The translations under genes and the position numbers were made by a program. The notes below the pieces were generated by a model. The model was not told the origin of the DNA. It searched no databases and saw nothing but the letters and a program-made list of their open reading frames with translations. Below, one piece after another: positions 4,305-23,063 of a stretch of DNA of 64,000 bases. Origin of the DNA: an uncultured Chloroflexia bacterium. Its GTDB lineage: Bacteria > Chloroflexota > Limnocylindria > Limnocylindrales > CSP1-4. The stretch spans positions 979,163-1,043,162 of the forward strand of contig CAWFXA010000003.1 of assembly GCA_963819655.1 (NCBI GenBank). Reading direction: 5' to 3'. Each line of letters opens with the position of its first letter. Position 1 is the stretch's first letter.

Positions 4305-4928
4305 ATGCGCCCATCGCTCACACATGTCGCCAGGTCGGTGGCCCTGGTCATCGGGCTCGGCCTGGTCCTCGCTGCGCCGGTCGCGGCGCGCGAACCCGTG
4401 GATCCGAACACGCTCAACCCGGCGCCGCCCGCGTCCTTCAACGCGACCTGCGAGCGGACCGGCAACATGGTCCTGTGCAACCTCGCGTTCAGCGATCCGC
4501 CGCTGGTCCTGGAGCCGAGCGGGGTCGTCTGTAGCGGCACCGAGCTCCTCGTGTCGCAGACCCGGGATGTTGTCGGCAAGCGCTTCTACGATGCGGACGG
4601 CAACCTCATCCGCCGGCACTTCCGAGAGGCCCTCGACGGGACCATCACCAACCCGTCGAGTGGGATCACCCTCGACTGGGTCGCCCACAACACGATCATC
4701 CACGACCTCGCGGTCCCTGGAGACATCGTGTCCGGGCGCACGTCGATCACGGGACAGCAGATGCGCATCTACGGCACCAACGGCACGGTCCTGGTCGATG
4801 TGGGGCACCTGGTCGTCGATGAGGCGACCGGTGAGCTGCTCAAGTCCAACGGCAAGCATGCCTTTGATGACTACTTCATCAACGGGAATACCGCGGCGCT
4901 CGCGCCGCTGTGTGACGCCATCTCCTGA
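4305..4928 (+). CDS. Secreted hypothetical protein
   Basis: AAGGAGG RBS, signal peptide ending PVAA, paired Cys, strong GC3 bias. Confidence 0.75.
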   Translation: MRPSLTHVARSVALVIGLGLVLAAPVAAREPVDPNTLNPAPPASFNATCERTGNMVLCNLAFSDPPLVLEPSGVVCSGTELLVSQTRDVVGKRFYDADGNLIRRHFREALDGTITNPSSGITLDWVAHNTIIHDLAVPGDIVSGRTSITGQQMRIYGTNGTVLVDVGHLVVDEATGELLKSNGKHAFDDYFINGNTAALAPLCDAIS

Positions 4929-5045
4929 GGGGACGCTGCGGCGATGCCGCAGCAGGAGCGGCCGTCGCGTGGACCACGATCGGACCATCCGACGGCCGCC
5001 TTTTCGTGCGCGACACCTTATTTGGGCGACCCCGATACTGGTCGC

Positions 5046-5618
5046 ATGCGCCGACTGATCTACTACATCACGATCTCCACCGACGGCATGTACGCAGACC
5101 CCGACGGCGGTTTGTCCCATTTCGAGCCGGCCGAGGATGAACACCGCTACGCCAACCGCCTCATCCGTGACGCGGGTGACATCGTCAATGGCCGCGTCAT
5201 GTACGACGTGATGGAGTACTGGGACGACCTCGACCTCGATGACCCCAACACCTCCGACATCGAGCGCGAGTTCGCGACCTTCTGGCGGGAGACCCCGAAA
5301 CACGTCGTGTCGCGCGGTCGACCGGTGCTCCGCGCGAACGCGACGCACATCGAGGGTGACGTCGTCGAGGCCGTCCGCCGCATGAAGACCGAGGATGGGC
5401 CGTACCTCGCGCTCGGCTGCGGCGCCGATCTCCTCGCTCAGCTGAGCGAGGCGGGGCTCATCGACGAGTACCGGTTCCTCGTTGCGCCGGTGGCGCTGGG
5501 TCGCGGCAAGGCCCTCTTCGCGAAGCTCGCCGCGCCGCTCGATCTCCGGCTCACCAGCGCGACGACGACCTCAGCCGGCGGCGTCCTGCTCGAATACGTC
5601 CCGGCCGCCGACCGCTGA
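5046..5618 (+). CDS. Dihydrofolate reductase / RibD C-terminal family protein
   Basis: MRRLIYYITISTDG, GRVMYD, GLIDEYRFLVAPVALGRGKALF. Confidence 0.88.
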   Translation: MRRLIYYITISTDGMYADPDGGLSHFEPAEDEHRYANRLIRDAGDIVNGRVMYDVMEYWDDLDLDDPNTSDIEREFATFWRETPKHVVSRGRPVLRANATHIEGDVVEAVRRMKTEDGPYLALGCGADLLAQLSEAGLIDEYRFLVAPVALGRGKALFAKLAAPLDLRLTSATTTSAGGVLLEYVPAADR

Positions 5619-5622
5619 GCGC

Positions 5623-6432
5623 ATGCACGGCTCCGCGACCGCCGCGAACAAGCTCGACCGGACCGGCTACGAGGTCGCGTTCGAGGACGACTTCGACCGG
5701 CCGACTCTCGACGAGACACGCTGGCTCCCCCACTACCTGCCGCACTGGAGCACGCCCGACCGGACCGCCACTCGCTACGAGATCCACGACGGCGTCCTGC
5801 GCCTGCTGATCGAGGCCGACCACGCACCGTGGTGCCCGGAACTCGATGGCGACCTGCGCGTGTCGTCGCTCCAGACCGGCGTGTTCGCCGGACCGGTGAG
5901 CTCGAAGATCGGCCAGCTCCAGTTCCATCCAGACGTCGTCGTCCGCACGCCGCAGGTGAACCGCGCGCTTCTCGCAGTCCATCACGGGCTCATCGAGACG
6001 CGGATGCGCGCCCTCGACGACCCGCGGGCGATGGTCTCGCTATGGATGATCGGCCTCGAGGACGAACCGGAGCATTCATCGGAGATCAACGTGGCCGAGA
6101 TCTTCGGACGCACCGTCGAGTCCCGCAGGGCGAGAATCGGCATGGGCGTCCACCCGTTCGGCGACCCGGCGATCATCGACGATTTCGTCGCCGAGGAGCT
6201 CGCGATCGACGTGCGCGACTGGCACACGTATTCCGCCGACTGGACGCCCGATCGCGTCGCCTGGTACGTGGACGAACGGCTGATCCGCGTGGTCGACCAG
6301 TCGGCCACCTACCCGATGCAGCTCATGCTCGGTATCTACGAATTCCCGGTCGACGACGACCCGCGCGACCCAGCCGACTACCCGAAGGCATTCGAGGTCG
6401 ACTGGGTGCGCGTGTCGCGCCTGCGGCTGTGA
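5623..6432 (+). CDS. Glycoside hydrolase family 16-like protein
   Basis: FEDDFD..LDETRW, EINVAE, WHTYSADWTPDRVAWYVD, PMQLML, FEVDWVRV. Confidence 0.8.
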   Translation: MHGSATAANKLDRTGYEVAFEDDFDRPTLDETRWLPHYLPHWSTPDRTATRYEIHDGVLRLLIEADHAPWCPELDGDLRVSSLQTGVFAGPVSSKIGQLQFHPDVVVRTPQVNRALLAVHHGLIETRMRALDDPRAMVSLWMIGLEDEPEHSSEINVAEIFGRTVESRRARIGMGVHPFGDPAIIDDFVAEELAIDVRDWHTYSADWTPDRVAWYVDERLIRVVDQSATYPMQLMLGIYEFPVDDDPRDPADYPKAFEVDWVRVSRLRL

Positions 6433-6436
6433 CGCG

Positions 6437-7045
6437 TCAGAAGTTCGGCGGCGTGATGGCTGAGACGATCTCCGCTTCCTCTTCGCCGACCGCCCGTGTC
6501 TTGTGCGGCAGGCCCGAGTCGTAATAGATGGAGTCGCCCTCGTTGAGCTCGTAGTCGACGTCACCGACGGTGATGACCACCTGGCCGCGCAGGACGAGAG
6601 CGCATTCCTCGCCCTCGTGCGCCATCGCCGTCGCGTCGACTCCGGGCTTGACGTGGACCAGGATCATCTCGATCTTGCGCCGCACATCGGGCGAGACCAG
6701 CTCGTAGGACAACGACCCGCCCGGCGGCTTGATGACCTTGCGCGCGTCCTTCCGCACGACCGCGCCATTGGATTCGGGTGCCGTGAACAGCAGGAAGACC
6801 GGCACTTCCAGGGCGGACGCGATCGAGCGGAGCACGAGGATCGACGGGTACGCGACGCCACGCTCGACGCTACTGAGGAAGCTGCGCGTGATGCCGACCA
6901 GCGCGGCGAGCCCGGTCAAGGTCAAGCCGCGCTCGGTCCGCAAGGCTCGGATCCGTCGGCCGAGCTGGTCGTCGCGTTCGATGGCTGACGTGCGAGCGGA
7001 GGAGCCCCTCTTCGGGCTCCTGGCCCGCGACCCGGGCGTGGACAT
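6437..7045 (-). CDS. XRE-family HTH transcriptional regulator with cupin sensor domain
   Basis: LGRRIRALRTERGLTL...LSSVERG..YPS; HEGEE; GDSIYYDSGLPH. Confidence 0.92.
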   Translation of the reverse strand: MSTPGSRARSPKRGSSARTSAIERDDQLGRRIRALRTERGLTLTGLAALVGITRSFLSSVERGVAYPSILVLRSIASALEVPVFLLFTAPESNGAVVRKDARKVIKPPGGSLSYELVSPDVRRKIEMILVHVKPGVDATAMAHEGEECALVLRGQVVITVGDVDYELNEGDSIYYDSGLPHKTRAVGEEEAEIVSAITPPNF

Positions 7046-7059
7046 GGAGCGGGTGGCCC

Positions 7060-8091
7060 TCAGCGAACGGCGACGCCGCCGCGCATCGGCTCCGCGCCGT
7101 ATTTACGCGTCAAGTATGGCAGAACCTCATCGCGGCAAACCTTCGCCACGATGGACGGATCGGGGCTCATGTCGGCCCAGATGATGTGGTCGCAACCGGC
7201 CTCGATGAAGGCCTCGAACCGGGCGATGATCTCCTCGCCGGACGTTGCGATGCAGAAGGCCGCCGAAAGGGCCTCGTCGCGCACCAGCAGGGCCCGCTGT
7301 TCGATGACCCGTGGATCCTGGATGTACGAATACGCCTCCGGGATGAGCAGCCCACCGTAGACGCGCGCTCCATCGAGCGCTTTCTCGCGATCGGGATGGT
7401 ACGACGTGCTGACCCACGCAGTCCGAAAGCCGTTCGGCGCGGCGCGCTCGGCCTCTGCGGCGCCGGCTTCGAACGCCGGAGCCAGGACATCACGGTGGAC
7501 CTCGGCGGGCACACCGACCGCGACGTATCCGTCGGCCAGGCGCCCGGCGTTGCCTGCCATCTTCGGACCACCGGCCGCGCAGATGATCGGGATCCGGTGC
7601 TCCAACTTCTGATAGAGGCGGAAGAAGGAGTCGAAGTACGTGCCCTGATGCCGGAAGTAGTCGGGCTCCTCCCAGCAGCGGCGGATGAGGCCGATCGCCT
7701 CGACAAGGCGCTCGATCCGTTCACGCAGAGGCGGCCACACGCCCGTGGTGGTCTTCTCGTTCATCGCCTCCCCGGTGCCCACGCCCAGGGCCACACGGCC
7801 TGGGTAGAGCAACTCGAGGGTCGCGATCTCGATCGCGACGTCGACCGGCTGATGGCGGATCCCGATCGGCGGGATCACCATCGGGCCGACGACGGCCCGT
7901 TCGGTGTTGGCGAGGAACGCCGTGAGGGTCGCCCAGATCCCCGCGCTGTGGCCCGACGAGTGCTGCCACGGCAGCGTGTGATCGCCTTCCCAGATGTGCG
8001 TGAAGCCGGCCTCCTCCAGGTCGCCGACCCGGCGCACGTTGTCCCGGACGTCATGACAGAGGCACTCGGGTGAGATGCCGAAGGTGACCAT
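7060..8091 (-). CDS. LLM-class flavin/F420-dependent oxidoreductase
   Basis: EEAGFTHIWEGDHTLPW, GRVALGVGTGEAMNE, AAGGPKMA...ADG. Confidence 0.88.
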   Translation of the reverse strand: MVTFGISPECLCHDVRDNVRRVGDLEEAGFTHIWEGDHTLPWQHSSGHSAGIWATLTAFLANTERAVVGPMVIPPIGIRHQPVDVAIEIATLELLYPGRVALGVGTGEAMNEKTTTGVWPPLRERIERLVEAIGLIRRCWEEPDYFRHQGTYFDSFFRLYQKLEHRIPIICAAGGPKMAGNAGRLADGYVAVGVPAEVHRDVLAPAFEAGAAEAERAAPNGFRTAWVSTSYHPDREKALDGARVYGGLLIPEAYSYIQDPRVIEQRALLVRDEALSAAFCIATSGEEIIARFEAFIEAGCDHIIWADMSPDPSIVAKVCRDEVLPYLTRKYGAEPMRGGVAVR

Positions 8092-8510
8092 CAGGCGTTC
8101 CCCACTGGAAGGCCGAGCTGCCCGAACAACGAGGCCGAGTCGTAGTACACGGTCTCGCGGGTGAAGAGCTCGGCGTTGTGCTCGTAGACGGATACGGCCT
8201 TGATCCGGAACGACCGACCGGTCGGGGCGTGGCCCACGAATTCACCCGTGTGCGTGCCGATCAGGTCGTACTCGGCCACGACCGTGTCGCCCCCGCAGGC
8301 GACGCAGTTCGTGACCTCGATATGGAGGTCCGGAAAACCGCGATAGAAGATGGCCATGAAATCGCGCATCTCGTCCTTGTTCCGGCACGGCTCGGGCACC
8401 GTGACGTCCTCGAAATAGACGTCGTCGGTGTAGTACGCGAGCACGGCCTCGAGGTCGCCGCGGCTCAGGTCGGCGATCTCGTCAAGGACAGCTTGGCGAG
8501 GGTCCATCAT
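8091..8510 (-). CDS. SnoaL-like / ester cyclase (NTF2 fold) protein
   Basis: GFPDLH, GTHTGEFVGHAPTGRS, YYDSASLFGQLG. Confidence 0.85.
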   Translation of the reverse strand: MMDPRQAVLDEIADLSRGDLEAVLAYYTDDVYFEDVTVPEPCRNKDEMRDFMAIFYRGFPDLHIEVTNCVACGGDTVVAEYDLIGTHTGEFVGHAPTGRSFRIKAVSVYEHNAELFTRETVYYDSASLFGQLGLPVGNA

Positions 8511-9426
8511 AGGAGGGCGCCTCCTTGACTCCGAGCAGCCGCAGGGCAGCACCGCCGAAGAAGCTCTGCTCGTCCTCCTCGGTGATGTACGGATCGAGGT
8601 CGTGTCGCTCGGTGTAGTCGCGGACCTTCTCGAAGAACGCCTTGCCGGTGTCGAACGGGACATACGGATAGTCCGAGCCCCACAGGAACCGGCCGAACAC
8701 GCCGAGCTTCTTGGCCCACGTCCAGATCTGGGCGACCCGCCACAGCGGCGCCGACTCGGCCCAGAACGCAAAGTCGCCGTAGATGTGCTCGAACTTCGCC
8801 ATGAAGTGCATCGTCTCCTCGGCCCACGCGAAACCGACGTGGCCGATGACGAGCTTCAGCTGCGGGAAGTCGATCATCACGTCTTCGAGCAGCAGCGGAT
8901 GGTCGTAGGCGAGCATCTTGCCCTTCGGGAACATGCTCCAGCCCGTGTGGGTGATGAGCGGCACGCCCATCGCCTCGGCGGCTTCGAACAACGGCCAGAT
9001 GCGACGGTCGTTGAGAGCCACGTAGTTGTAGGACGGGAGCATCTTCAGGCCCTTGAGGCCCTGCTCGTTGATGGCCCGCTCGAATCGCTTCACTTCGGCG
9101 TTGCCGCCGAGCGGGTTCGCGGTGTAGAAGCCGAACAGGCGATCCGGCCAGCGCTGCACCATCGACTGGACATAGGCCCCGTTCTCGGGGTCGTATGCGC
9201 CCCACGGCAGGTAGCCGACGCCGAGCACGAACGCCTTGTCGATCCCCGCCGCGTCCATGTCGGCGATCAGCCGCTCGCCGGGAACGCAGAAGTCCTCCGG
9301 TGTCCAGGGCTTGCCCGTGTGCCAGCAATCCTGGCCTTTGAACATGTTCACGTAGAACTCGCCGAGCTCGCGCGGGAAGTCGACCTCGAAGCGCTGCATG
9401 TGCGTGTGCGAGTTGATGAGCGTCAT
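8482..9426 (-). CDS. Amidohydrolase_2 family metal-dependent hydrolase
   Basis: NSHTH, GLKGLKM, HTG, GHVG, WGSDYP. Confidence 0.9.
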   Translation of the reverse strand: MTLINSHTHMQRFEVDFPRELGEFYVNMFKGQDCWHTGKPWTPEDFCVPGERLIADMDAAGIDKAFVLGVGYLPWGAYDPENGAYVQSMVQRWPDRLFGFYTANPLGGNAEVKRFERAINEQGLKGLKMLPSYNYVALNDRRIWPLFEAAEAMGVPLITHTGWSMFPKGKMLAYDHPLLLEDVMIDFPQLKLVIGHVGFAWAEETMHFMAKFEHIYGDFAFWAESAPLWRVAQIWTWAKKLGVFGRFLWGSDYPYVPFDTGKAFFEKVRDYTERHDLDPYITEEDEQSFFGGAALRLLGVKEAPSYDGPSPSCP

Positions 9427-9481
9427 GTGGTTCCTCGTGCGGTGTCGCGGTGAAGGCGTCGGACCTGGGTCGGGTCAGGGA

Positions 9482-11141
9482 TCACACATCGGGGTTTCCT
9501 CGGCGCACGACACGTCCGGTCCGGGCCGCCTCATCCACGACGCCATCGCGAACGATCGGCGTGCCGTTGACCAGGACGTGTTCGATGCCGACCGGCGCGG
9601 CGGTCGGCGCGCGATAGGTCGTGCGGTCGGCGACGGTCGCGGCGTCGAAGACGACGACGTCGGCGTAGTTGCCCTCGCGCAGCGTGCCGCGCTTCCTGAG
9701 CCCGACCCGCTGGGCGGGTAATGACGTGGACTTGCGGATGGCCTCCTCGACACTGAACAGGCCGCGGTCGCGGGCGAAATGCCCGAGGACGCGGGGGAAG
9801 GTGCCGTAGGCCGCCGGGTGCGGCTTGCCACGGCCGGTCAGGATCGCGTCGCTCTCGGCCGCCGCGAGCGGATGCGCGAGCAATTTCTCCAGCCCAGCCT
9901 CCTCCTCCGGTTCGCCGGACACACCGAAGTACAGGGCCATCGCGTGCCCGCTCTCCTCGAGCACGAGGTCGGCGGCCACGTCGAACGGATGGCGATCGCG
10001 CTCTTCGGCGATCTCCGTCAGACGAGCGGCCTTCGAGCGGTTTGTTCGCCTCGCTCTCGACCCACATGATCGAGACGTTCTGCCAGCCGGTCGCTTCGAC
10101 CAGGTTGTGTGGCCAGCCGCCCGGCGTCCAGCACGGCCAGCCGGGCACGTCCTCCTCGATCGAGCGGCGGATGCGGGCACGGGCGTCCGGATCGCGCAGC
10201 CGGCCGAGGAGACCGTCGACGCCGCCGGCCAGCGCCCACGGCGGGAAGATGGCCAGGAGCGTCGTGTTCGCCGCGATATACGGGATCACGTCGAAGCCCG
10301 TGTCGACGCCCCGCTCGCGGGCCGCTTCATGGAGCTCGATGATCGCATCGAGCTTGGACCAGTTCGGACGACCGAACGCCTCCATGTGGGAGTGCTGGGT
10401 CGAGATCCCGTTGACCTCGCCGACCCGGATGACCTCCTTGGTGGCCGGCAGAAGCGTCTCGCTCGAGCCCCGGATGTGGCTCGCATACAGCCCGTCGAAC
10501 GGACCCAGCTCCGACGCCAGGTCCTCGATCTCCTCGGGGGGCGCGAAGATCCCGGGTGCGTAGAGCAACCCGGAAGACAGGCCCCAGGCACCTTCCTCCA
10601 TCGCTTTCCGGAGCTGGTCGCGCATCCGCGTCCGCTCGTCCGGCGTGAGCTCGCGGCCTTCGAACCCGACCTCGTGGATGCGCAGGGCGCCATGGGCGAC
10701 CATCGGCACGACGTTGAACATCAGGCCATGGCCGTCCAGATAGTCCAGGTAGTCGCCAAAACCGGTCCAGGCGTCGGGCAGGTCGCCGGCGCGCAGGAAC
10801 GTCGTGTAGCTCGCCAGCTCGGCCCGGGTGCGCGGGTTGACCGGCGCGGGCGAATACCCGCAGTTCCCGGTCACCAGCGTCGTGATGCCCTGGGCGGCGA
10901 ACGGGGCCAGGACCTCCCCGTGCGACTCGTCGGCGACGACGAAGTCGCTGTGCGAATGGATGTCGATGAAGCCGGGCGAGACGATCCGGCCGGCCGCATC
11001 GATCACCGTCGCTCCGGGCGCGTCGTCGGGGATCCGTCCGATCGCGGCGATCATGCCGTCACGGATCCCGATGTCGGCCGGGAACCACGGGTTACCCGTG
11101 CCGTCGACGACGCGCCCGTTCCTGATCAGGACATCGAACAT
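9482..11141 (-). CDS. N-acyl-D-amino-acid deacylase (D-aminoacylase); single-base frameshift near 10022
   Basis: PGFIDIHSHSD, GNCG, GLSSGLLY; C-terminal HPAAYGTFPRVLG and ADVVVFD continue in another frame (PLEGRS/LTEIAEE). Confidence 0.88.
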
Positions 11142-11170
11142 GGCCTGCCCTGCGCTACGAACCCGCGGAC

Positions 11171-12625
11171 TCAGAAGCCGGGGTTTGCGGCCAGGTACGC
11201 GTCGATCTCGTCCTGGGCCTTCTTGTGCTCCGCGGCCGGATCGGCGCCGTGGAACGCAGCCGAGACCGCGGCCTCCACGACGTCCGAGATCTTCTGGTAG
11301 GCCGCGCGCGTGCCGTAGCGATTGTTCTTGAACTCCTGCTGCGCGAACGCGGTGTCGACTGCCGCCTGGTCAGCCGCGGGGACCGTCGAGTCGCTGTACG
11401 GAGCGATGTACGACGGGTAGCCGCTCTCGTCCGCGGGCTCGAAGGTGTGCAGCTCCTCACGGCGGGTGAGGAGGCCGAGCTGGGTCGCGGCGTTCGAGTA
11501 GTGCTTGATGAGGTCGAGCGCCGCTTCCTTGTACGGGCTCGTCTTCGGGATGCCGAAGCACTCCCCCACCACCTGGCCGCCCGAGGCGGGCAGGTCGCCG
11601 CCGTAGCCCGGGATGATCGCGACCTCGACCGGATCTTCGCCGAGCGCCGACAGGTTCGGGTCACGAGCCTCGTACCAGATGTGCTGGTAGTCGATCATCA
11701 TCGCGGCCTTGCCGCCGAGGAAGACCTTCTTGGCCTCGACGTCGTAGATCCCCCAGGGCGACTCGATGACCTCCTTCGGCATGTTCGGCAGCAGGTCGAT
11801 CATGTCCTGCGTTGCCTTGATCGCCACGGGGTCGTTGAACCGGACTTCGCCGTTGGGCCCGTACAGGTCACCGCCGTTGAGGTGGTACCAGACGCACCAC
11901 TTCGGGAAGAGGTAGAGCGGCGCCCAGCCGTCGACGTAGCCGAACTGGTCGCCGGTCGTGAACTGCTTCGCGGCCGCGAGGAACTCGGCGTAGGTCTTCG
12001 GCACGGTGACGCCCGCGTCCGCGAACATCTTCTTGTTGGCGTAAAGGACGTACGTGTAGATGTTGCTCGGCAGGCCGTAGAACTTGCCGCTCGAACCCTT
12101 GGCAGCTTCGATGGCCGCCGGCAGCATGACGCTCTCGTCGACGGTGACCCCAAGCTCGTCGAATGGGGTCAGGTACTGCTCATAGAGGTCGACCCAGGCG
12201 CGCCACAGGTAGGCGACGTCCCAGCTCTCGCCGCCGCTCTCGAAGGCCGGCGTGAGCTTGAGCGGAAGCGGGCCGAAGGCCTCACGGGTGAACTCGACCT
12301 TCGCTCCTGTTCGCTGCTCCCACTCCGGGGTGACCATCGCGTAGAACCCGGTGTGGTTCGCGAGCAGGACCTTGAGCGGTCGCTCGAGGGTGAACGTCGC
12401 CGCCTCGCTGGGTGCGACGGATGGGCCGATGCTCGCAGCCGGAGCGCTGCTCGGCGCCGCCACCGACGGGGCAGCGGTCGGGGTGCACGCGGCAAGCGCG
12501 ACGCTCGCGCCGGCCATGGTGGTGCCGGCGAGGAACCGCCGCCGCGTGAGCGGGCTGGCGAGAACCCCGTCCGGGTTCTCCAAGGGTCGCTGGGTCTGGT
12601 CCATGACATCCTCCTCCATAGACAT
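11171..12625 (-). CDS. ABC transporter solute-binding lipoprotein (CUT1 sugar family) with Tat signal
   Basis: LTRRRFL twin-arginine motif plus LAAC lipobox; YGLP..LYANK..PKTYAEF. Confidence 0.9.
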   Translation of the reverse strand: MSMEEDVMDQTQRPLENPDGVLASPLTRRRFLAGTTMAGASVALAACTPTAAPSVAAPSSAPAASIGPSVAPSEAATFTLERPLKVLLANHTGFYAMVTPEWEQRTGAKVEFTREAFGPLPLKLTPAFESGGESWDVAYLWRAWVDLYEQYLTPFDELGVTVDESVMLPAAIEAAKGSSGKFYGLPSNIYTYVLYANKKMFADAGVTVPKTYAEFLAAAKQFTTGDQFGYVDGWAPLYLFPKWCVWYHLNGGDLYGPNGEVRFNDPVAIKATQDMIDLLPNMPKEVIESPWGIYDVEAKKVFLGGKAAMMIDYQHIWYEARDPNLSALGEDPVEVAIIPGYGGDLPASGGQVVGECFGIPKTSPYKEAALDLIKHYSNAATQLGLLTRREELHTFEPADESGYPSYIAPYSDSTVPAADQAAVDTAFAQQEFKNNRYGTRAAYQKISDVVEAAVSAAFHGADPAAEHKKAQDEIDAYLAANPGF

Positions 12626-12631
12626 GACGAC

Positions 12632-13651
12632 CTACTTCACGGCGCCTTCGCCGAGACCTCGAATGAGATACCGCTGCATGAGCAGGGCCAAGGTGAGTAC
12701 CGGGATCGACGCGATCAGGCCGGCCATCGAGAGCTGCGGTTCGATCCGGTTGATGGGGTCCATGAGGTTGACGATCGCCGGCGCGAGCATCGGTGTGCTG
12801 CCGACGTAGAGCACCTTCGACACGAGCAGGTCATTCCACGACAGGACGAACGCGAAGACCGCGGCCGTCACGATGCTCGGCACGGTCACAGGCAGGACGA
12901 CCCGTCGCAGAGCCTGGAGCCGGCTCGCACCATCGATCCGCGCGGCGTGCTCGAGGTCCGGCTCCACCCCGTCGAACGTCCCGATGAGGATCCAGGTCAC
13001 GAGCGGCACGGTGAGCGCGATGTGCCCGATCGCCATCCCCGGCAGCGTGTCGATCAGCCCGAGGCCCTTGAAGATCGCAACGAGCGGCACGAGCAGCGCG
13101 ACGCCCGGAAGCATGTACGCGACCATCACCCCGGTGTACGTCGCGCCCCGGCCAGGGTACCGAAGCCGCGCGATGGCGTACGCCCCCAACAGGCCGAGCA
13201 GCGTCGTGACGATCGCTGCCGTGGTAGACACCAGGAGGCTGTTGCGCAGGCCGTCCTCGAAATACGGGATCCGCATGAGCTGGTCGAACGCGATGGTCGT
13301 CGGCGCCGGCGGCAGGACATGGGGTCCCGTCAGCAGATCGGCCCGCCTCTGCAAGGACCCGAGCACCACCACGAACCCGAACGGGATGACGATCAACAGC
13401 ACGACGCCGAGCGCAAGGAGCGACGCCACGACCCGTGCGCCGAGATCCTGGCGAAGCGCGTTGAGGCCGCGCCACAGGAGGGTCAGGCCGGCGAGGGTGG
13501 CGACGACCCAGACCCAGAATGGCAGCCCGAACGGGCGCGCGATCTGGACGAGCTCGAGGATGGCGGCGCCGGCGATGAGTCCGGCTCCCGCGATCGCCGC
13601 GACCTTGGCCATCCGCGGCTCGGTCGCCGTCCGCAGCCCGTTCGTCGTCAC
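12632..13651 (-). CDS. Carbohydrate ABC transporter permease (MalG-type)
   Basis: LEHAARIDGAS EAA loop, FVLSWND; GTG start overlaps the upstream TGA. Confidence 0.9.
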   Translation of the reverse strand: MTTNGLRTATEPRMAKVAAIAGAGLIAGAAILELVQIARPFGLPFWVWVVATLAGLTLLWRGLNALRQDLGARVVASLLALGVVLLIVIPFGFVVVLGSLQRRADLLTGPHVLPPAPTTIAFDQLMRIPYFEDGLRNSLLVSTTAAIVTTLLGLLGAYAIARLRYPGRGATYTGVMVAYMLPGVALLVPLVAIFKGLGLIDTLPGMAIGHIALTVPLVTWILIGTFDGVEPDLEHAARIDGASRLQALRRVVLPVTVPSIVTAAVFAFVLSWNDLLVSKVLYVGSTPMLAPAIVNLMDPINRIEPQLSMAGLIASIPVLTLALLMQRYLIRGLGEGAVK

Positions 13652-14586
13652 GACAGGAGTCCCCGCGCCCTGCCCCGCGTGAGGAGCAGGGCGAGCACCA
13701 CGACGAAGGCGGTGACGACATACGCAAGCACCGCGCCGTACCCGAAATCGGTCTGCTCGAACGTCGTCTTGAACGTGTAGAAGTACAGGTTGTACGTCGA
13801 GTAGCGCCCGGGCCCGCCACCGGTCAGCGCGAAGATCAGGTCGAAGAGCTGGATCGTGATCAGGACCTGGATGATCACCGCAGCGATGAGGGTCGGGCGC
13901 AGGAACGGCAGGACGACGTGGCGGAACCGGCGCCACCGGCCGGCACCATCGATCCGGGCGGCGTTGATGGTCTCCTCGGGCAGGTACTGGAGGGCGACCA
14001 GGAAGATCAGGGCGAGGAGCGAGAACGTCTTCCAGATGTGGATCGCGGTCAGCATGAACAGGGTTCCCGGGACGCCACTCAGGAAGAGCGGCGGCTGATC
14101 GACAAGGCCGGCGTTGACGAGCCACTCGCCGAGGAGGCCCCGGCGCGAGTCGAGGAACCACTGGAACATCGCGGCCACGACGACAGGCGGCAGTGCCCAC
14201 GGGATAAGGAGCGCTGCGCGGGCGAGGCTACGACCCGGGAAGCGCTCGTTGAGCACCAGGGCCACCGCCAGTCCGATGACCACGCCGAGCACCGCCGATG
14301 GGATGACGTACATCAGCGTCTGACCCGCGGCCTGGATGAAGATCGGATCGGTCGTGATGCGGAGCCAGTTGTCGAGGCCGACGAATGGTCCGAGGCGGCC
14401 AGGCACCGTCGAACGTCCGGTGACGGTCAGCAGGAGCGAGTACACGACGGGATAGCCGATGAGGCCGATGAAGAGGGCCGCCGTCGGGATCAGGAACAGC
14501 GCGGCATACGCCTGGTTCTCGCGGCGGATCGACAGCCCGCTCAGGCGGTTGCCGCGCTCGGACACAGTCACTGGCTCGGCGGTCAT
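13648..14586 (-). CDS. Carbohydrate ABC transporter permease (MalF-type)
   Basis: FVGLDNW, NAARIDGA, LTGGGPG. Confidence 0.92.
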   Translation of the reverse strand: MTAEPVTVSERGNRLSGLSIRRENQAYAALFLIPTAALFIGLIGYPVVYSLLLTVTGRSTVPGRLGPFVGLDNWLRITTDPIFIQAAGQTLMYVIPSAVLGVVIGLAVALVLNERFPGRSLARAALLIPWALPPVVVAAMFQWFLDSRRGLLGEWLVNAGLVDQPPLFLSGVPGTLFMLTAIHIWKTFSLLALIFLVALQYLPEETINAARIDGAGRWRRFRHVVLPFLRPTLIAAVIIQVLITIQLFDLIFALTGGGPGRYSTYNLYFYTFKTTFEQTDFGYGAVLAYVVTAFVVVLALLLTRGRARGLLS

Positions 14587-15716
14587 CGCGCCACCGCCTC
14601 GCGCGGTTCCGCGCCGGTGGGACGGGCGTCCAGCGGAAGGCTGATGCGCTGCCCGTTGTCAGGGTCGAAGAACAACAGGTGGTTCGGGGCGAACGTCACG
14701 CCGACCTCGTCGCCGACGGCCAGCTCCTCGGCCGGGACGCGCGCCCGGAGGGTCCGGTCCGCCACCACGATCGTGGCGTACTCATCGGGCGCGACGACCT
14801 CCGTGAGCGTGACGCGCCCGGTCATCGACGACGATGCGACGTCGCGCACGACCCGGACTCCCTCCGGGCGCACGCCGAGGACGACCGGCAGTGGCGTCGC
14901 CGGCGGGTCCTGGTCTCGGAGGTCGACGCCGATGACGCCGGCCTCGAAGCGCGCCCGCCCGTCGACGGCCACGATCTGGCCGGGGATGAAGTTCATCGGC
15001 AAGCGCCCGACGAACGAGGCGACGAACCGGTTCGCCGGTCGTCGGTAGATCGACCCCGGCGTGTCCACCTGCTGGACGTCACCGCGGGCCATGACGACGA
15101 CCCGGTCGCCCATCGCCTCGGCGTCGTCCTGGTCATGGGTGACGTAGATGAACGTCGCCCGCAACTGCTGATGGAGTCGCTTGAGCTCCTCACGCGTCGT
15201 CGCCCGCAGGTTCGCGTCGAGGTTGCTGATCGGTTCGTCGAGGAGGAAGACCTTCGGCTCGCGAACGATCGCCCGGCCCAGCGCCACGCGCTGACGCTCG
15301 CCGCCGCTCAGGGCGCGCGGATGACGGTCGAGCAGGCCGCCGATGCCGAGCATCTCCGCGACCTCGCCGACGCGGGCGTACCGGTCGGGCTTGTTCATGC
15401 CGCGGAGCATCAACGGGAAGCCGATGTTGTCGCGCGCGGTCATATGCGGGTACAGCCCGTAGGACTGGAAGACCATCGCGACGTCGCGCCGCTCCGGCGT
15501 GACGTTGGTCACATCGCGTCCGTCCATCAGGATCCGCCCGGAGGTGACCTCCTCGATGCCGGCGAGCAACTTGAGGACAGTGCTCTTGCCGGACCCCGAC
15601 GGCCCGAGCACGCAGGTGAATAGGCCATCCTCGAACGTCAGCGATGTCTCGCACAGGGCATCGCTCGCGGCGTTCGGGTAGCGCTTGACCACCCTGTCGA
15701 GGCGAACCTCAGCCAC
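14583..15716 (-). CDS. ABC transporter ATP-binding protein (MalK-type, TOBE domain)
   Basis: GPSGSGKS, LSGGERQ, LLDEP, YVTHDQ. Confidence 0.95.
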   Translation of the reverse strand: MAEVRLDRVVKRYPNAASDALCETSLTFEDGLFTCVLGPSGSGKSTVLKLLAGIEEVTSGRILMDGRDVTNVTPERRDVAMVFQSYGLYPHMTARDNIGFPLMLRGMNKPDRYARVGEVAEMLGIGGLLDRHPRALSGGERQRVALGRAIVREPKVFLLDEPISNLDANLRATTREELKRLHQQLRATFIYVTHDQDDAEAMGDRVVVMARGDVQQVDTPGSIYRRPANRFVASFVGRLPMNFIPGQIVAVDGRARFEAGVIGVDLRDQDPPATPLPVVLGVRPEGVRVVRDVASSSMTGRVTLTEVVAPDEYATIVVADRTLRARVPAEELAVGDEVGVTFAPNHLLFFDPDNGQRISLPLDARPTGAEPREAVAR

Positions 15717-17166
15717 GCTCGCTCCCGGCCGCGGCTGCGACGCGTTCTGGCCCGGCTCGGACGACCTCCCACTCCTCCCGGAGCTGGTCGGCATCGATGT
15801 TCAGGTCGGCGGCCAGGAAGTCGACCTCGACGTCGACCAGCGGCCTGGACCCCGCCCTGGTGGCGATCCGCTGGAGATACGAGCGCCGCAGCCGCGCCAG
15901 GTCGATCTCGCCGATGCCCATCGCTTCGATGGTCGGCGGGAAGACGATGCGCTGACCCGGACGCTCATCCTCGCGCGGCCCGACCGCCAGCTCGATGCCC
16001 ATCTCGCGGGCCAGCGTCAACTGGGCGGTCGGATGCTTGCCTGCGCCCGTGTATTCGGTCTCCTGGACGACGATGACCTCGTCCTCACGGAACTCTCGGG
16101 CCAGGACGAGGGCGGCCGCCAGGGAGGTGTTGCCGGCCGGTCCCCGCTCGAGGCCCTCGAGATCGGCGAGAAGCTGGGTCGTGTAGAAGACCTCGCCCTG
16201 GGTGACCGTGACGTAGCGGTCCAGGTAGCGCAGCCCGCGAGCCGCGTTCCGCGGCACGTCGACCCGATCGGGATCGACGGAGAAGGGAACCCCGAAACCG
16301 GTGTGGCCGGTCGTGAACGACTTGCGATTGAAGTCACGGTCGCTGGCCATGTGCAACCCGGTCAGGTCCACGCTGGCGCCGATCACGGACGTGTCGTCGG
16401 CACCCGCTCGCCGAAGACCCCTGGCGGTCCCGGTGACGTTGCCCCCGCCGCTGTGGGTCGCGACCACGGCCGACGGGGCCCGGCCGTACCGCTCCGTGCA
16501 TTCGACGGCGATCTCGTAGCCGAGCGTCTCGACACCCAGCGTCGCATACGGCGTGTACAGGCTGGCGTTGAAGTAACCGGTCTGCTCGAGCAGGCGCAGA
16601 TGGATGTAGAACAGCTCCGGACCGACGGTCAACTGCCAGACCTCGGCGCCGTACGCCTCGCACGCGCGTGTCTTCTCGAGGACTTCCGGCTGGCCGCGAC
16701 CGTTCGAGTCGAACACCTCCTGGAGGATCAGCGCCTTGAGCCCGTACATCGCGGCCTGCGACGCGATCGCCGCCCCGTAGTTGCCAGACGTGGCCGCGAT
16801 CACACCGGCAAAGCCACCGTCGGCGGCCTGCGCGAGACAGATCGACGCCCGGCGGGCCTTGAAGCTACCGGCCGCGTTCGCCGCCTCGTCCTTCACCAGG
16901 ATCCGCGCGCCAAATCCGGGCGGGGCCGCCTGGCGGGCCAGCGCGCTGAGCCGGTTCAGCTCGAGCAATGGAGTCTCACCGACCTTGTTCTGGCGCTGCA
17001 CGCGACGGACGTCCTCGAAGGTCGGCGGCGGGCTGTCGGCGAGGCCCGCGTAGTCGAACGCGATACCTCCCTCGAGCTCGTACCGGTCGTAATCGATCCC
17101 GATCGACCGCCGCATGATCTCGGCGCGGCGGGCCATGACGCCCGTGTACGAGTCGTCGCGGGTCAT
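15709..17166 (-). CDS. ortB: 2-amino-4-oxopentanoate thiolase beta subunit (PLP-dependent)
   Basis: SYTGVMARRAEIM, KDEAANAAGSFKARRAS, SDRDFNRKSFTTGHTGFGVPF, GPAGNTSLAAA, ETEYTGAGKH. Confidence 0.92.
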   Translation of the reverse strand: MTRDDSYTGVMARRAEIMRRSIGIDYDRYELEGGIAFDYAGLADSPPPTFEDVRRVQRQNKVGETPLLELNRLSALARQAAPPGFGARILVKDEAANAAGSFKARRASICLAQAADGGFAGVIAATSGNYGAAIASQAAMYGLKALILQEVFDSNGRGQPEVLEKTRACEAYGAEVWQLTVGPELFYIHLRLLEQTGYFNASLYTPYATLGVETLGYEIAVECTERYGRAPSAVVATHSGGGNVTGTARGLRRAGADDTSVIGASVDLTGLHMASDRDFNRKSFTTGHTGFGVPFSVDPDRVDVPRNAARGLRYLDRYVTVTQGEVFYTTQLLADLEGLERGPAGNTSLAAALVLAREFREDEVIVVQETEYTGAGKHPTAQLTLAREMGIELAVGPREDERPGQRIVFPPTIEAMGIGEIDLARLRRSYLQRIATRAGSRPLVDVEVDFLAADLNIDADQLREEWEVVRAGPERVAAAAGSERG

Positions 17167-17506
17167 CGCGGTTCGGACTCCTCGAGCGCTCGACGCGCGG
17201 CCACGCCGAGGGCCAGCAACTCGGGGACGGGGTCGCCGAAATCGGCGGGGTTGCGTGGGTTCACCGGGTCAGCCGACCGCCGACCTCACGTCCCAGGAGT
17301 GTGCGCACCGTGACGTCATCGCCGAGCGAGGCGGGCTCGGCCAGGAACCCCCGGATGCGGGCGACGAAGTCGGTCTCCGCGGTGTCCTGGGGCACGTTGG
17401 GGGCCCGGCCACCAGCTGGAAGGACGACCTGGCTGACCTCCACCCACGCCCCGGCCGGGACCGGCGTCGCGTCGGCCGCGGGGCTGCGGGGGAGCTTCGC
17501 CACCAC
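17163..17506 (-). CDS. ortA: 2-amino-4-oxopentanoate thiolase alpha subunit; single-base frameshift near 17264
   Basis: GAWVEVSQVVL..GRAPNVPQDT, GFL, TLLGR; shifted frame continues VNPRNPADFGDPVPELLALG and ends in an ATGA overlap with ortB. Confidence 0.85.
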
Positions 17507-17544
17507 GACCTCCGATCGTTCAAGCGCCGGAAAACGTGTCATGC

Positions 17545-17577
17545 ACGATATGCCAACGACCACCTTGCGTCAACGCA
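17545..17577 (-). promoter_or_regulatory. Sigma70-type promoter of the ort operon with palindrome over the -35
   Basis: Minus strand TTGACG-17nt-TATCGT; TGCGT-ca-ACGCA inverted repeat; GGAGG RBS before ortA. Confidence 0.6.
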
Positions 17578-17616
17578 TATAGTACAGACGAAGGCCCGTG
17601 CACGGAGGCATCCCGC

Positions 17617-18987
17617 GTGTCCAGCCTCGTCCAGGATGACGCCCTGCGATCGCTCTCGGAGACCCTGCGCGGCGAGCTGTTACTGCCCGGCGATGACGGC
17701 TACGAGACCGCGCGACGTGTCTTCAACGGCATGATCGACAAGCGCCCTGCGGCCATCGCCCGCGTCCGCGGGACGTCCGACGTGATCGCGGCGATCGCCT
17801 ACGCCCGGGACCGCGGTCTGCAGGTCGGCGTCCGCGGTGGCGGCCATAACGTGGCCGGCCACGGGACGTGCGATGACGGCCTGCTCATCGATTTCTCCCT
17901 GATGCGCGGCGCCCGGGTGGACCTCACGTCACAGACCGCGCGCGCGGATCCTGGCTGCAACTGGATCGACTTCGACACGGAGACCTCCGCTCACGGGCTC
18001 GCCACGACCGGCGGGACCGTCGGGAGCACCGGGATCGCGGGGCTGACCCTCGGTGGAGGGCTTGGCTTCCTGATGGGGAGCTATGGCTTGACGTGCGACA
18101 ACCTCGTCTCGGCCGACGTGGTGATGGCCGACGGGTCGTTCGTGACAGCAAGTGACGAGAGCCACGAGGAGCTCTTCTGGGGCATCCGCGGCGGGGGCGG
18201 CAACTTCGGGGTCGTCACCTCGTTCGAGTACTGCCTCCATCCGGTCGATCGGTTGCTGGCCGGGCTCGTCGCCTATCCGTTCGAGCACGCTCGCGCCGCG
18301 CTCGAGCTGTTCCGTGAGGTCACGGCGGTGGCGCCGGACGAGCTCAGTTGCGCCTTCGTGATGGTCACCGTCCCGGACGGCGGACCGCGCATCGCCGCCA
18401 TCGCGGCCTGCTACAACGGGCCGATCGAGGACGGCGAGAAGATCGTCGCGCCGATCCGCCGCCTCGGCCCGCCTCTCGACGACGGGATCCGCCCGATGAC
18501 CTATCCCGAGGTGCAGCGCATCTTTGCGGAGATCCCATTCGGGCTGCAGAACTACTGGAAGGGCCACTTCCTGCGCGACATGCCGGACGCGGCCATCGAC
18601 GCGGCCGTGGCGTCGTTCGAGGGGGTCACGTCGGATCACTCCGCGATCCTGATCGAGGCCCCGCACGGCGCCGTGCGCCGGGTACCGGATGACGCCACAG
18701 CGTTCGGCCAGCGCCAGGCCCGGTTCAACGCGAGCGCGCTCGCGGTCTGGGAAGGTCCGGCCGATCCGGACCGGCACATCCGATGGGTGCGCGACTATGC
18801 CGACGCGGTCGCGCCGTACGCGTCCGGAGACTACGTGAACTACCTGGCCGACGACGCGTCGAGCGCTGAAGTCGCGTCAGCCTACGGGGCCCAGCGCTTC
18901 GAACGGCTGGTCGCGCTCAAGAACCGCTACGACCCGTCGAACGTCTTCCGCTTCAATGCGAATATCGCCCCGAGTCGGCCGGCCTGA
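17617..18987 (+). CDS. FAD-binding oxidoreductase (BBE / 6-hydroxy-D-nicotine oxidase-like)
   Basis: RGGGHN, GIAGLTLGGG, RGGGGNFGVVT, YVNY, KNRYDPSNVF. Confidence 0.93.
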   Translation: MSSLVQDDALRSLSETLRGELLLPGDDGYETARRVFNGMIDKRPAAIARVRGTSDVIAAIAYARDRGLQVGVRGGGHNVAGHGTCDDGLLIDFSLMRGARVDLTSQTARADPGCNWIDFDTETSAHGLATTGGTVGSTGIAGLTLGGGLGFLMGSYGLTCDNLVSADVVMADGSFVTASDESHEELFWGIRGGGGNFGVVTSFEYCLHPVDRLLAGLVAYPFEHARAALELFREVTAVAPDELSCAFVMVTVPDGGPRIAAIAACYNGPIEDGEKIVAPIRRLGPPLDDGIRPMTYPEVQRIFAEIPFGLQNYWKGHFLRDMPDAAIDAAVASFEGVTSDHSAILIEAPHGAVRRVPDDATAFGQRQARFNASALAVWEGPADPDRHIRWVRDYADAVAPYASGDYVNYLADDASSAEVASAYGAQRFERLVALKNRYDPSNVFRFNANIAPSRPA

Positions 18988-19035
18988 CGCACGGCGCCCC
19001 CCAACCGTCGCAGGCCGGCCGACTATCCTTGATCC

Positions 19036-19395
19036 ATGGATGAGCAGACCGTTCGTGCCCACGCCCGCGCGATGTGCGACGCGATCGTCGCCGGCGACGT
19101 CGATCGGGCGATCGAGGATGTCAGCCCGGAGCTGCGCAGGAACCTCGGCGAGGTGATCAGCCTCTTTCCGCTGCCGTCGAGGGAGGCGGCGATCGAGTCG
19201 ATCGCTCAAGGCGGCTCGAGCTTCGTGGTCGTGCTGCGGCTGGTCGGCGAGAACGAGGAGGTCCAGGTCCAGACGCGCTGGAAGGATCGTGACGGCAAGC
19301 CGACGCTCGTCGAGGCGAGCCACCTGAGCCGGACCGAGGTCGCGGCGGAGGCCGCCGAGACCGAAGGTGGCGGCGAGGACGCGAACGGCGGCTGA
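19036..19395 (+). CDS. Small acidic hypothetical protein (NTF2-like?)
   Basis: Coding-like codon usage; TATCCT-N6-ATG leaderless signature. Confidence 0.65.
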   Translation: MDEQTVRAHARAMCDAIVAGDVDRAIEDVSPELRRNLGEVISLFPLPSREAAIESIAQGGSSFVVVLRLVGENEEVQVQTRWKDRDGKPTLVEASHLSRTEVAAEAAETEGGGEDANGG

Positions 19396-19431
19396 CGGCT
19401 CCGGTCGACGCCCCGGCTGACCGACCCCGGG

Positions 19432-22241: not shown

Positions 22242-23063
22242 TCAGTCCACGTACGGACCGTTGTAGATCGGCGCCTCACCGTACGGCTTGCCGGCCATCA
22301 GCATGAACCGCGCCCCAGGCGTGGCCCCGTCAACGGTCAGGGCTCCGCCCGGTCCGAGGACTGCGATCGCCGATCGAGCGGCGCGGAGTCGGTTGGACCC
22401 GATGTCCGCCTCGCCTTCCAGCATGTAGACGAAGCCGTTGAAGTCCGACGGGATCGGTGTCGTGAAAGACCCGCCCTTCGGCAGCTCGACGTCCAGGATC
22501 AGTCCTGGTGTCCCGAGCTCCACGGGAGAGCCCGCGCCCACCATGATCCGGACGATCGCGTCGCCCTCCTGGCGCGTGGGGATGTCCTCCGGTTGCAGGA
22601 GTTGCGATGTCGGCTCGACGTTCTTGTCCTTGCGCGCGAGGTTCACCCAGAACAGCACGCCCCGGAACTCCGTCCCGGCCTTGCCTTCACGGAGCTCTTC
22701 CTCGCCGATGCTCTCGGCGTGGTACACGCCACGACCCGTTCGCAGCTTCAGCAACGAGCCGGGCTGCAGGCGCGCTCTCTCGAACGTGCCGCCGGGACCC
22801 GTGCTGTGCCCGGTGCTCGCCTCGCCCGAGATCACGTACCAGAGGTTGTCGAACCCGCGGTGCGGATGGGTCGTGTCGAGCGCCGCGCGCTCCGGATCGA
22901 TCGGGACGATCCCCTCGTGGACGAGGATGAATGGGTCGACCTGCTCGTACGGGATGCTCCGCGATGGCAGGGGCTCGAGGATCTCGAGACCCATCATCGG
23001 GCGGGTGTGGGCGTCCTCCAGGTGGACGACCTCGCGCTGTGCGGTTTCGACTTGCGTAGCCAT
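22242..23063 (-). CDS. Pirin family protein
   Basis: DPFIL, HPHRGF, GVYHAE, WVNL, GPYV. Confidence 0.9.
   Translation of the reverse strand: MATQVETAQREVVHLEDAHTRPMMGLEILEPLPSRSIPYEQVDPFILVHEGIVPIDPERAALDTTHPHRGFDNLWYVISGEASTGHSTGPGGTFERARLQPGSLLKLRTGRGVYHAESIGEEELREGKAGTEFRGVLFWVNLARKDKNVEPTSQLLQPEDIPTRQEGDAIVRIMVGAGSPVELGTPGLILDVELPKGGSFTTPIPSDFNGFVYMLEGEADIGSNRLRAARSAIAVLGPGGALTVDGATPGARFMLMAGKPYGEAPIYNGPYVD

Follow-up and report, generated by a model that had tools for sequence, protein, structure and literature searches.

An undescribed operon context of the thiolase genes ortAB in a Limnocylindria-type Chloroflexota genome and a candidate catabolic route

The DNA analysed here, a stretch of 64,000 nucleotides from an uncultured Chloroflexia bacterium (assembly GCA_963819655.1, contig CAWFXA010000003.1, positions 979,163 to 1,043,162; hereafter the window), carries ortA and ortB, the genes for the small and large subunits of the thiolase OrtAB, at the head of an operon that is real, conserved and previously undescribed as a context of ortAB. 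Eleven co-directional genes make up this operon. They lie on the minus strand between 17506 and 6437, in the order ortA, ortB, ATPase, two permeases, solute-binding protein (SBP), Amidohydro_3, Amidohydro_2, SnoaL, LLM oxidoreductase and XRE-cupin regulator (Table 1). All the genes named in the initial annotation were recovered on this strand by profile searches, as was the divergent BBE-like FAD oxidase on the plus strand, with its FAD_binding_4 and BBE domains. The tight coupling described there was also seen, since successive genes overlap by 4 nt at the closest and lie about 61 nt apart at the farthest. The interval 6200-19500 held no terminator-like site, against an expectation of 3.4 from shuffled sequences. 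The window has a high GC content (64-72% per kb) and its host lineage is Limnocylindria-type Chloroflexota, the OrtB matches at 77-96% identity all lying in metagenome-assembled genomes so labelled; the host genome itself is 91.25% complete.

Table 1. Genes and regulatory features of the ortAB operon and of the divergent gene, in window coordinates
Feature	Position	Strand	Evidence and remarks
Divergent promoter and candidate operator	17542..17586		Sigma-70-like site bracketed by inverted-repeat arms
ortA, thiolase small subunit	17163..17506	-	PF22010, 69.9 bits; start GTG 17506 after GGAGG
ortB, pyridoxal phosphate (PLP)-dependent thiolase large subunit, 485 aa	15709..17166	-	NF040741, 731.2 bits
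ATP-binding cassette (ABC) ATPase, MalK/UgpC type	14583..15716	-	ABC_tran, 114 bits; TOBE_2; OB_MalK; start GTG 15716
ABC permease 1, UgpA/MalF type	13648..14586	-	BPD_transp_1, 68.4 bits
ABC permease 2, MalG/GlcU type	12632..13651	-	GlcU, 105.3 bits; MalG, 97.1 bits
CUT1-type solute-binding lipoprotein	11171..12625	-	SBP_bac_8 and SBP_bac_1, each ~88 bits
D-aminoacylase-type Amidohydro_3, long form, ~551 aa	9485..11141	-	Profile match; frameshifted in the assembly
Amidohydro_2 metal hydrolase, decarboxylase/hydratase family, 314 aa	8482..9426	-	PF04909, 117 bits
SnoaL/NTF2-like protein, ~139 aa	8091..8510	-	SnoaL, 77.5 bits; ATG 8510 after AAGGAGG
LLM oxidoreductase, Adf/FGD type	7060..8091	-	Bac_luciferase, 150 bits
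XRE helix-turn-helix and cupin regulator, PuuR-like architecture, last operon gene	6437..7045	-	HTH_3, 46.8 bits; Cupin_2, 63.7 bits
BBE/EncM-type FAD-linked oxidase/oxygenase, divergent	17617..18987	+	FAD_binding_4, 102 bits; BBE, 44.4 bits; GTG 17617 after GGAGG

OrtB exceeded the cut-off (550 bits) of the NCBI equivalog model NF040741 over profile positions 2-459 of 464, as the single match to this model in a profile search of the whole host genome, and its PALP domain (171.8 bits) marks it as a fold-type II PLP enzyme. The motifs GSFK (with Lys103) and GGGN (240-243) are among 156 positions that are near-invariant in 81 aligned OrtB rows, and Lys103 is presumably the PLP lysine, as in the motif of threonine-synthase-type enzymes. 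OrtA of the window reached 69.8 bits against NF040739, whose cut-off is 70, because a frameshift leaves profile positions 2-65 of 93 matched, whereas the intact orthologues of the related loci L009 and L014 scored 91.7 and 99 bits. The shifted-frame tail of ortA ends in a TGA that overlaps the ATG of ortB.

To place this arrangement among other occurrences of ortAB, the loci of the best 80 of 442 OrtB relatives, taken from one-genome-per-species contigs, were searched by tblastn; the queries were the window proteins and reference proteins of annotated loci. An ornithine-type context alone (OraE, OraS or Ord) was found in 31/80 loci and the new context alone (XRE-cupin, Amidohydro_3, SnoaL, M28 peptidase or an uncharacterised Cys-rich family, described below) in 38/80; one locus (L076) showed both, and the remaining ten, some of them on short contigs, showed neither. 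The XRE-cupin gene never occurred together with OraE, nor Amidohydro_3 with OraE or OraS, and an XRE-cupin homologue adjoins ortAB in 36 of the 80 loci. The full partner set of Amidohydro_3, SnoaL, XRE-cupin, LLM, Amidohydro_2 and the CUT1 SBP was present in 13 loci, 11 of which also had the BBE gene. The initial annotation had allowed that the neighbourhood might be conserved in no other genome; this was not the case, given these 13 loci and the recurrence of a smaller core (XRE-cupin, OrtAB, Amidohydro_3 and SnoaL) in further phyla. Gene order was rearranged in L026, in the Dehalococcoidia locus L029 and in a further Chloroflexota locus, L120, where the contig ends inside ortB and no LLM gene was seen. 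Within the class of the window, OrtB is rare: it exceeded its cut-off in 2/151 sampled genomes (one of them the unpublished G096) and in 0/9 others of the genus.

The versions of the module in other phyla share the core and differ in what surrounds it. Loci labelled Thermodesulfobacteriota, Spirochaetota and Bacillota combine it with a branched-chain-type ABC importer, an M28 peptidase, one or two copies of this Cys-rich family and a flavodoxin-like protein. In ten loci of other phyla (Thermodesulfobacteriota, Bacillota and similar) genes for alanine racemase and/or alanine dehydrogenase lie beside the core, which fits D-alanine as a product. Thermoleophilia loci carry M28 and M24 peptidases, the same Cys-rich family, OrtAB, XRE-cupin and a HapK-like protein, and in two of them LLM and Amidohydro_3 genes lie next door to the ortAB unit. 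Contigs assembled from a rhizosphere RNA library, 92-99% alike, map to the operon of relatives and bridge the ortA/ortB and ortB/ATPase junctions; they are a weak hint of operon transcription, as DNA can occur in such libraries.

Two sources are described for the OrtAB substrate, (2R)-2-amino-4-oxopentanoate (AKP). The oxidative ornithine degradation cluster was reportedly first described by Fonknechten in 2009. According to PMC8803604, the B12-dependent ornithine route is one described AKP source. Its cluster in anaerobes such as Clostridium sticklandii and C. difficile comprises orr, oraS/oraE, ord and ortA/ortB. The window shares with it the terminal pair, with adjacent and translationally coupled ortA and ortB, and its OrtB is 58-67% identical to the homologues found there and in Bacillota, Thermotogota and other phyla. 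In contrast to the ornithine cluster, the window operon and its genome lack the racemase, the B12 aminomutase, the GlmL-like protein and Ord; the partners are instead an ABC importer, two amidohydrolases, SnoaL, LLM and XRE-cupin proteins, and the host is a high-GC soil Chloroflexota without glycyl-radical enzymes.

The initial annotation had called this ortAB pair an orphan and had asked for a genome-wide check, and both the profile searches and tblastn agreed with it. The C-terminal domain of 2,4-diaminopentanoate dehydrogenase (DAP_DH_C) and the OraS family OAM_alpha gave no match in the host genome, and Ord, OraE, OraS and GlmL-like queries taken from ornithine-type loci each gave no hit there (tblastn, E<=1e-5). 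As these two family searches had matched no control genome, the OraS search was repeated on genomes reached through the loci, where OraS was found in three of three ornithine-type control genomes and in none of 12 genomes with the new context. A 782-aa open reading frame (ORF) elsewhere in the host genome (L008, G000:C1:424000-443999, 9522-11870) and on another contig was considered as OraE and rejected, its match to Lys-AminoMut_A, the single one in the genome, being weak and partial (104.9 bits) and without B12-binding or OAM_dimer domains; it adjoins a MoaD/MoaE fusion and an O-methyltransferase gene.

The second source is the glycyl-radical C-N lyase HplG, whose product OrtAB is reported to cleave in the primary paper on that enzyme. 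The review PMC13450708 states that HplG opens trans-4-hydroxy-D-proline to 2-amino-4-ketopentanoate. This route resembles ours in being a further AKP source and shows that OrtAB can be recruited to non-ornithine routes. It differs in its enzyme: pyruvate formate-lyase (PFL)-like glycyl-radical enzymes gave no match in the host genome, while three control genomes did give matches, and none was found in nine of nine new-context genomes of Chloroflexota, Thermoleophilia and Bacillota (the non-Desulfobacterota genomes). Free hydroxyproline was rejected as the substrate, since no proline-racemase-family gene occurs in any of the 80 loci and the one copy in the host genome is unlinked, without hydroxyproline genes around it. 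We know of no non-radical chemistry that leads from 4-hydroxyproline to AKP.

The first partner of OrtAB is a complete CUT1 importer, consisting of a MalK-like ATPase with TOBE and OB domains, two MalF/MalG-type permeases and a family-1 SBP; the transporter claim of the initial annotation thus stood, except that its gene list had omitted the transporter's own ATPase. No model was matched at an equivalog cut-off, the ATPase scoring 368 bits against the UgpC model (cut-off 432). The models for permease 2 match the C-terminal part of an ORF at 12632-14200, with candidate starts at 13651 or 13612. Read from the translation, the N-terminus of the SBP holds a twin-arginine (Tat) RRRF motif followed by a lipobox Cys. 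Its best solved relatives are sugar-binding proteins, at an E-value no better than 1e-11, and many of its Trp and Tyr residues are invariant; a structure model from a 14-row alignment was unusable (pLDDT 46.5).

The Amidohydro_3 protein was compared through its intact orthologue in L014, which matched the D-aminoacylase of Alcaligenes faecalis (1m7j) and the N-acyl-D-glutamate deacylase 3gip with 259 bits over both halves, in agreement with a common fold. It keeps the HxH, Cys, His, His and Asp positions of 1m7j, which we take, from the literature on that enzyme, to be metal ligands and catalytic residues; in the window the catalytic Asp position lies behind a frameshift at ~10022. Members of the N-acyl-D-amino-acid deacylases also cleave L-Xaa-D-Xaa dipeptides. 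The window type differs from them in being ~70 residues longer, with a conserved Trp-rich extra segment of ~50-70 aa, and in belonging to a large Chloroflexota family that mostly occurs without OrtAB; against the NCBIfam subfamily PRK09061 it scored 189.8 bits, below the cut-off of 340. At E<=1e-80 the long family was detected in 118/401 Chloroflexota genomes (a tally that includes the unpublished G354), and therefore it is no marker of an OrtAB route. A second long copy in the host genome adjoins a YgjP-like peptidase gene. OngB of oxidised-chitin catabolism (9kb1), which deacetylates N-acetyl-glucosaminate, matched the window type with 195 bits. Oxidised amino sugars, the substrates of an OngB-type route, were rejected because the deacylase is nearer to the D-aminoacylases than to OngB; moreover, 2-amino-aldonates lose their amino group on dehydration and so would not give AKP.

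For the remaining proteins the assignments stay at the level of families. The best solved relative of Amidohydro_2 is the uncharacterised BB4693 (3irs, E 7e-11), followed by the decarboxylases LigW and ACMSD; searches of PDB sequences with Amidohydro_2 and SnoaL gave no functional lead, the relatives of the latter being generic SnoaL-fold proteins, and a protein atlas returned generic names only for Amidohydro_3 and Amidohydro_2. The BBE enzyme is closest to EncM among solved structures (357 bits, E 1.7e-105), with 6-hydroxy-D-nicotine oxidase at 198 bits. The XRE-cupin protein scored 82.7 bits against the PuuR model, below its cut-off of 211.

The solved structure nearest to the LLM oxidoreductase is Adf of methanogens (1rhc, 179 bits), with the glucose-6-phosphate dehydrogenases FGD at 160 and 153 bits, and in an alignment to 1rhc, 5lxe and 3b4y it keeps the motifs DH..PW and GEAMNE, whose His/Trp and Glu, respectively, are presumably catalytic. 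It differs from Adf and FGD in falling below the cut-offs of all F420 models of NCBIfam (F420_G6P_DH, 159.9 bits; TIGR03557, 154 bits) and in belonging to an amino-acid catabolic operon. The search for F420 biosynthesis genes that the initial annotation had called for gave a divided result: cofD (298 bits) and cofE (252 bits), both above their cut-offs, are adjacent at G000:C1:139267-141576, but cofG and cofH, for FO synthase, had no match in the host genome (91% complete). This leaves two explanations: the FO synthase genes were missed in the assembly, or FO reaches the organism from outside. A CofE match was obtained in all seven genomes with LLM in the locus (six above the cut-off, one split in two pieces) and in none of four anaerobe genomes without LLM, a comparison confounded by kinship. 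The anaerobes carry the module without LLM, and oxidation at C4 by this enzyme therefore cannot be a universal step. A dehydrogenase of the methyl-carbinol type beside a thiolase that requires a methyl ketone is nevertheless suggestive, and oxidation of a 4-hydroxy precursor at C4 was chosen as the likeliest role, an assignment from family membership and gene proximity that we make tentatively and with some doubt.

In the 111-bp spacer between the divergent genes, a minus-strand sigma-70-like site was found (-35 TTGACG, a 17-nt spacer and -10 TATCGT; 17573-17545), together with inverted-repeat arms of 12 nt each at 17542-17553 and 17575-17586, 83% complementary and 21 nt apart. The site is the one such match between 6200 and 19500, and by itself it is no evidence because shuffled sequences average 0.9; it counts because relatives conserve it. 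A core of ~60 bp that holds the promoter and the arms is nearly invariant in 11 Limnocylindria-type sequences, compared with a mean column identity of 53% over the whole alignment. We read this core as a promoter with a candidate operator, to which the XRE-cupin protein would bind.

In a quick maximum-likelihood tree of the 81 OrtB rows, the window falls in a Chloroflexota clade with 99% support; this clade, the Thermoleophilia rows, L029 and L021 together make up 26 rows that group with 87% support, and the Desulfobacterota-type rows form a second clade (98% support). The context labels change seven times on the tree, compared with 27.2 times in shuffles. This agreement speaks against the idea that two unrelated modules merely lie side by side here, ortAB on the one hand and a transporter and hydrolase set for a sugar-like or N-acyl compound on the other, with no shared pathway. 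The wide occurrence of the long Amidohydro_3 family without OrtAB would fit such a juxtaposition, as would the Thermoleophilia loci, in which Amidohydro_3 and LLM belong to a neighbouring unit with BtpA, FGGY-kinase and GFO/IDH/MocA genes. However, the association outlasts rearrangement and transfer across phyla, and in the window neighbouring genes of one transcription unit overlap or directly adjoin each other, so that we regard this explanation as very improbable.

OrtB itself is almost the same in both contexts. The 31 ornithine-type rows and the 24 rows of the window group are separated at just two conservative positions (M/L at 42 and V/L at 148), and no solved OrtAB structure was found onto which a pocket could be mapped. 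Given the near-unchanged OrtB and the alanine racemase and dehydrogenase genes beside the core in other phyla, thiolysis of AKP to acetyl-CoA and D-alanine is likely to be the end step. The same operon might instead serve another thiolase substrate, such as a hydroxylated or longer 2-amino-4-oxo acid that would yield alanine and an acyl-CoA other than acetyl-CoA. That no AKP-feeding enzyme is recognisable, that an importer of sugar type with an SBP rich in Trp and Tyr would suit a polar substrate of larger size, and that the OrtB clade of the window is distinct all agree with this; on the other side stand the two conservative differences beside 156 near-invariant positions and an OrtB score above the equivalog cut-off, and we consider the alternative unlikely. 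Kynurenine-type aryl substrates were also judged unlikely, given the near-invariant OrtB.

Taken together, we lean towards a substrate-inducible catabolic operon ending in OrtAB thiolysis, in which AKP would probably be reached by a third route that involves neither ornithine nor B12 nor a glycyl-radical enzyme. The sugar-type ABC importer, with its Tat-exported lipoprotein SBP, would take up a conjugate, in which the D-aminoacylase-type Amidohydro_3 may hydrolyse the N-acyl or peptide linkage of a D-amino acid; whether this D-deacylation takes place is, from the kept active-site positions, an even call. The Adf-like LLM protein would then use F420 to turn a secondary alcohol at C4 into the methyl ketone and so form AKP, and OrtAB would cleave AKP to acetyl-CoA and D-alanine, the latter to be handled by the alanine racemase homologue of the host genome (35% identity, tblastn). 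The XRE-cupin protein would control the operon from the operator that brackets the promoter, and the divergent flavoenzyme gene probably as well. Directly observed are the identities of the genes, their arrangement as an operon, its conservation, the absence of both known ways of supplying AKP and the near-constancy of OrtB between contexts; the substrate, the order of the steps and the roles of LLM, Amidohydro_2, SnoaL and the BBE enzyme are inferred. The order of import, deacylation, C4 oxidation and thiolysis put forward in the initial annotation fits the kept Amidohydro_3 and LLM motifs and the invariance of OrtB, but no evidence was obtained that the compound is cyclic or a 4-hydroxy compound, as had also been suggested.

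The pathway could also run in the opposite direction, with OrtAB condensing D-alanine and acetyl-CoA to AKP and with SnoaL, the EncM-like enzyme and LLM tailoring a small natural product; SnoaL, EncM/BBE and F420-type LLM proteins are families typical of polyketide tailoring, and EncM is the nearest relative of the BBE enzyme. An SBP-dependent ABC importer is nonetheless found in every version of the module, several amide hydrolases are present, and no polyketide synthase, non-ribosomal peptide synthetase or exporter was seen in the annotated loci. The regulator, moreover, is of the XRE-cupin, catabolic PuuR-like type, and the alanine racemase and alanine dehydrogenase genes found with the module in other phyla are in line with breakdown, all of which makes a biosynthetic operon highly unlikely.

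If the assembly is read literally, both ortA and Amidohydro_3 are broken. By comparison with the proteins of L009 and L014 (used for all three genes treated here) and with the DNA of L009, L011 and L014 (for ortA and Amidohydro_3), ortA is short of 1 nt near 17264, so that its last 33 codons are read in a different frame; the gene for Amidohydro_3 holds one extra nucleotide at ~10022, which puts its last ~178 codons out of frame, the C-terminal frame remaining open to 9485. A neighbouring Na+/H+ exchanger gene (19435-20992, minus strand) is shifted near 19750, with its last ~105 codons in another frame, so that three shifted genes lie within 22 kb of the window. Elsewhere in the genome, two overlapping ORFs make up the leucyl-tRNA synthetase gene (L121, G000:C2:1121000-1140999, 4470-7147), and since this gene is essential, such a split points to indel errors of the assembly. 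In contigs from three public runs, including one RNA library, there is one additional letter at 17264/17265; these contigs come from relatives and not from this strain, as none of the runs compared is of the same strain and the best shares 0.35 of words.

These observations suggest that single-base indel errors are frequent in the assembly and that the frameshifts of ortA and Amidohydro_3 are probably assembly errors. Were the shifts real, the operon would be decaying in this genome and the route non-functional here, whatever relatives do. Both shifts are missing from three close relatives, and the ortA shift is also missing from the contigs of the three runs, as would be expected of such a decay, and the distribution of OrtB in the class is sparse and patchy. 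But the shift in the neighbouring exchanger gene and the split of an essential gene point to the assembly, and both broken genes remain open and conserved past the shift, which leaves decay improbable.

Several points weigh against the catabolic route as proposed. The frameshifts in ortA and Amidohydro_3, if real, would leave the operon inactive in this genome, and with cofG and cofH not found, the supply of F420 is unproven. The anaerobes' version lacks LLM, Amidohydro_2, BBE and the CUT1 importer, which means that its upstream chemistry is different or that these genes have an accessory role. The long Amidohydro_3 occurs in 118/401 Chloroflexota genomes, as opposed to OrtB in 2/151 of the class. 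The OrtB tree is a quick version in which the joining of the window clade with Thermoleophilia, L029 and L021 rests on 87% support, and the 80 loci, being the best of 442 relatives, are a sample biased towards the clade of the window.

A search of a literature library returned no description of this ortAB context or of bacterial 4-hydroxynorvaline catabolism. OrtAB is treated in that literature as a marker of anaerobic ornithine fermentation, and automatic annotation on this basis would lead to wrong pathway assignments in genomes from soil and sediment. The 38 of 80 closest loci with the new module, together with the absence of the aminomutase from 12 of 12 genomes, suggest that several uncultured phyla use a substrate yielding acetyl-CoA and alanine. 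Identifying that substrate would add a catabolic pathway, would assign functions to a large D-aminoacylase subfamily and to a SnoaL family, and might give F420 a role in amino-acid breakdown. A narrower version of the catabolic reading, which we hold to be doubtful, is that soil Chloroflexota and Thermoleophilia possess an oxygen-compatible AKP route, free of B12 and of radical enzymes, in which the D-aminoacylase frees a D-4-hydroxy amino acid from the conjugate taken up and the F420-dependent, Adf-like dehydrogenase oxidises it to the substrate of OrtAB. If true, this would be a first link of coenzyme F420 to amino-acid catabolism and a third, mechanistically different AKP source, and the module of the anaerobes, with its Cys-rich protein of V4R-like fold, would reach AKP by yet another step.

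That Cys-rich family (L057:14371-15270) has three conserved Cys, is absent from the window and has paralogues in 12 loci of other phyla. It gave no Pfam or NCBIfam match; its structure model (pLDDT 91.6) showed a weak likeness to H-NOX, V4R and phenol-sensor (PoxR/MopR) domains, the best Foldseek E-value being 1.4e-3, which points to no enzyme function. In L029 a gene pair for a class-III aminotransferase and a DapB_N/DAP_DH_C protein, resembling native amine dehydrogenase or Ord (34% to Ord), lies beside the module (14600-16990, minus strand) and hints that a 4-amino precursor may feed AKP in the L029 version. Another ortAB context was seen in the Bacillaceae loci L039 and L051, where the neighbours are a class-III aminotransferase, a GntR regulator and an ABC importer of PotD type, along with a Fer2_4 and Pyr_redox_2 pair that recalls the subunits of opine or sarcosine oxidases.

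Within the window, a 119-aa ORF (19036-19395, plus strand) directly follows the BBE gene and may be co-transcribed with it; it gave zero Pfam/NCBIfam matches and is 90-96% conserved in L009 and L014. Two pirin-family genes (22242-23063 and 24742-25497), as well as LUD-domain, rhodanese and zf-UBP-type genes, lie downstream of the operon region and are unrelated to the operon finding.

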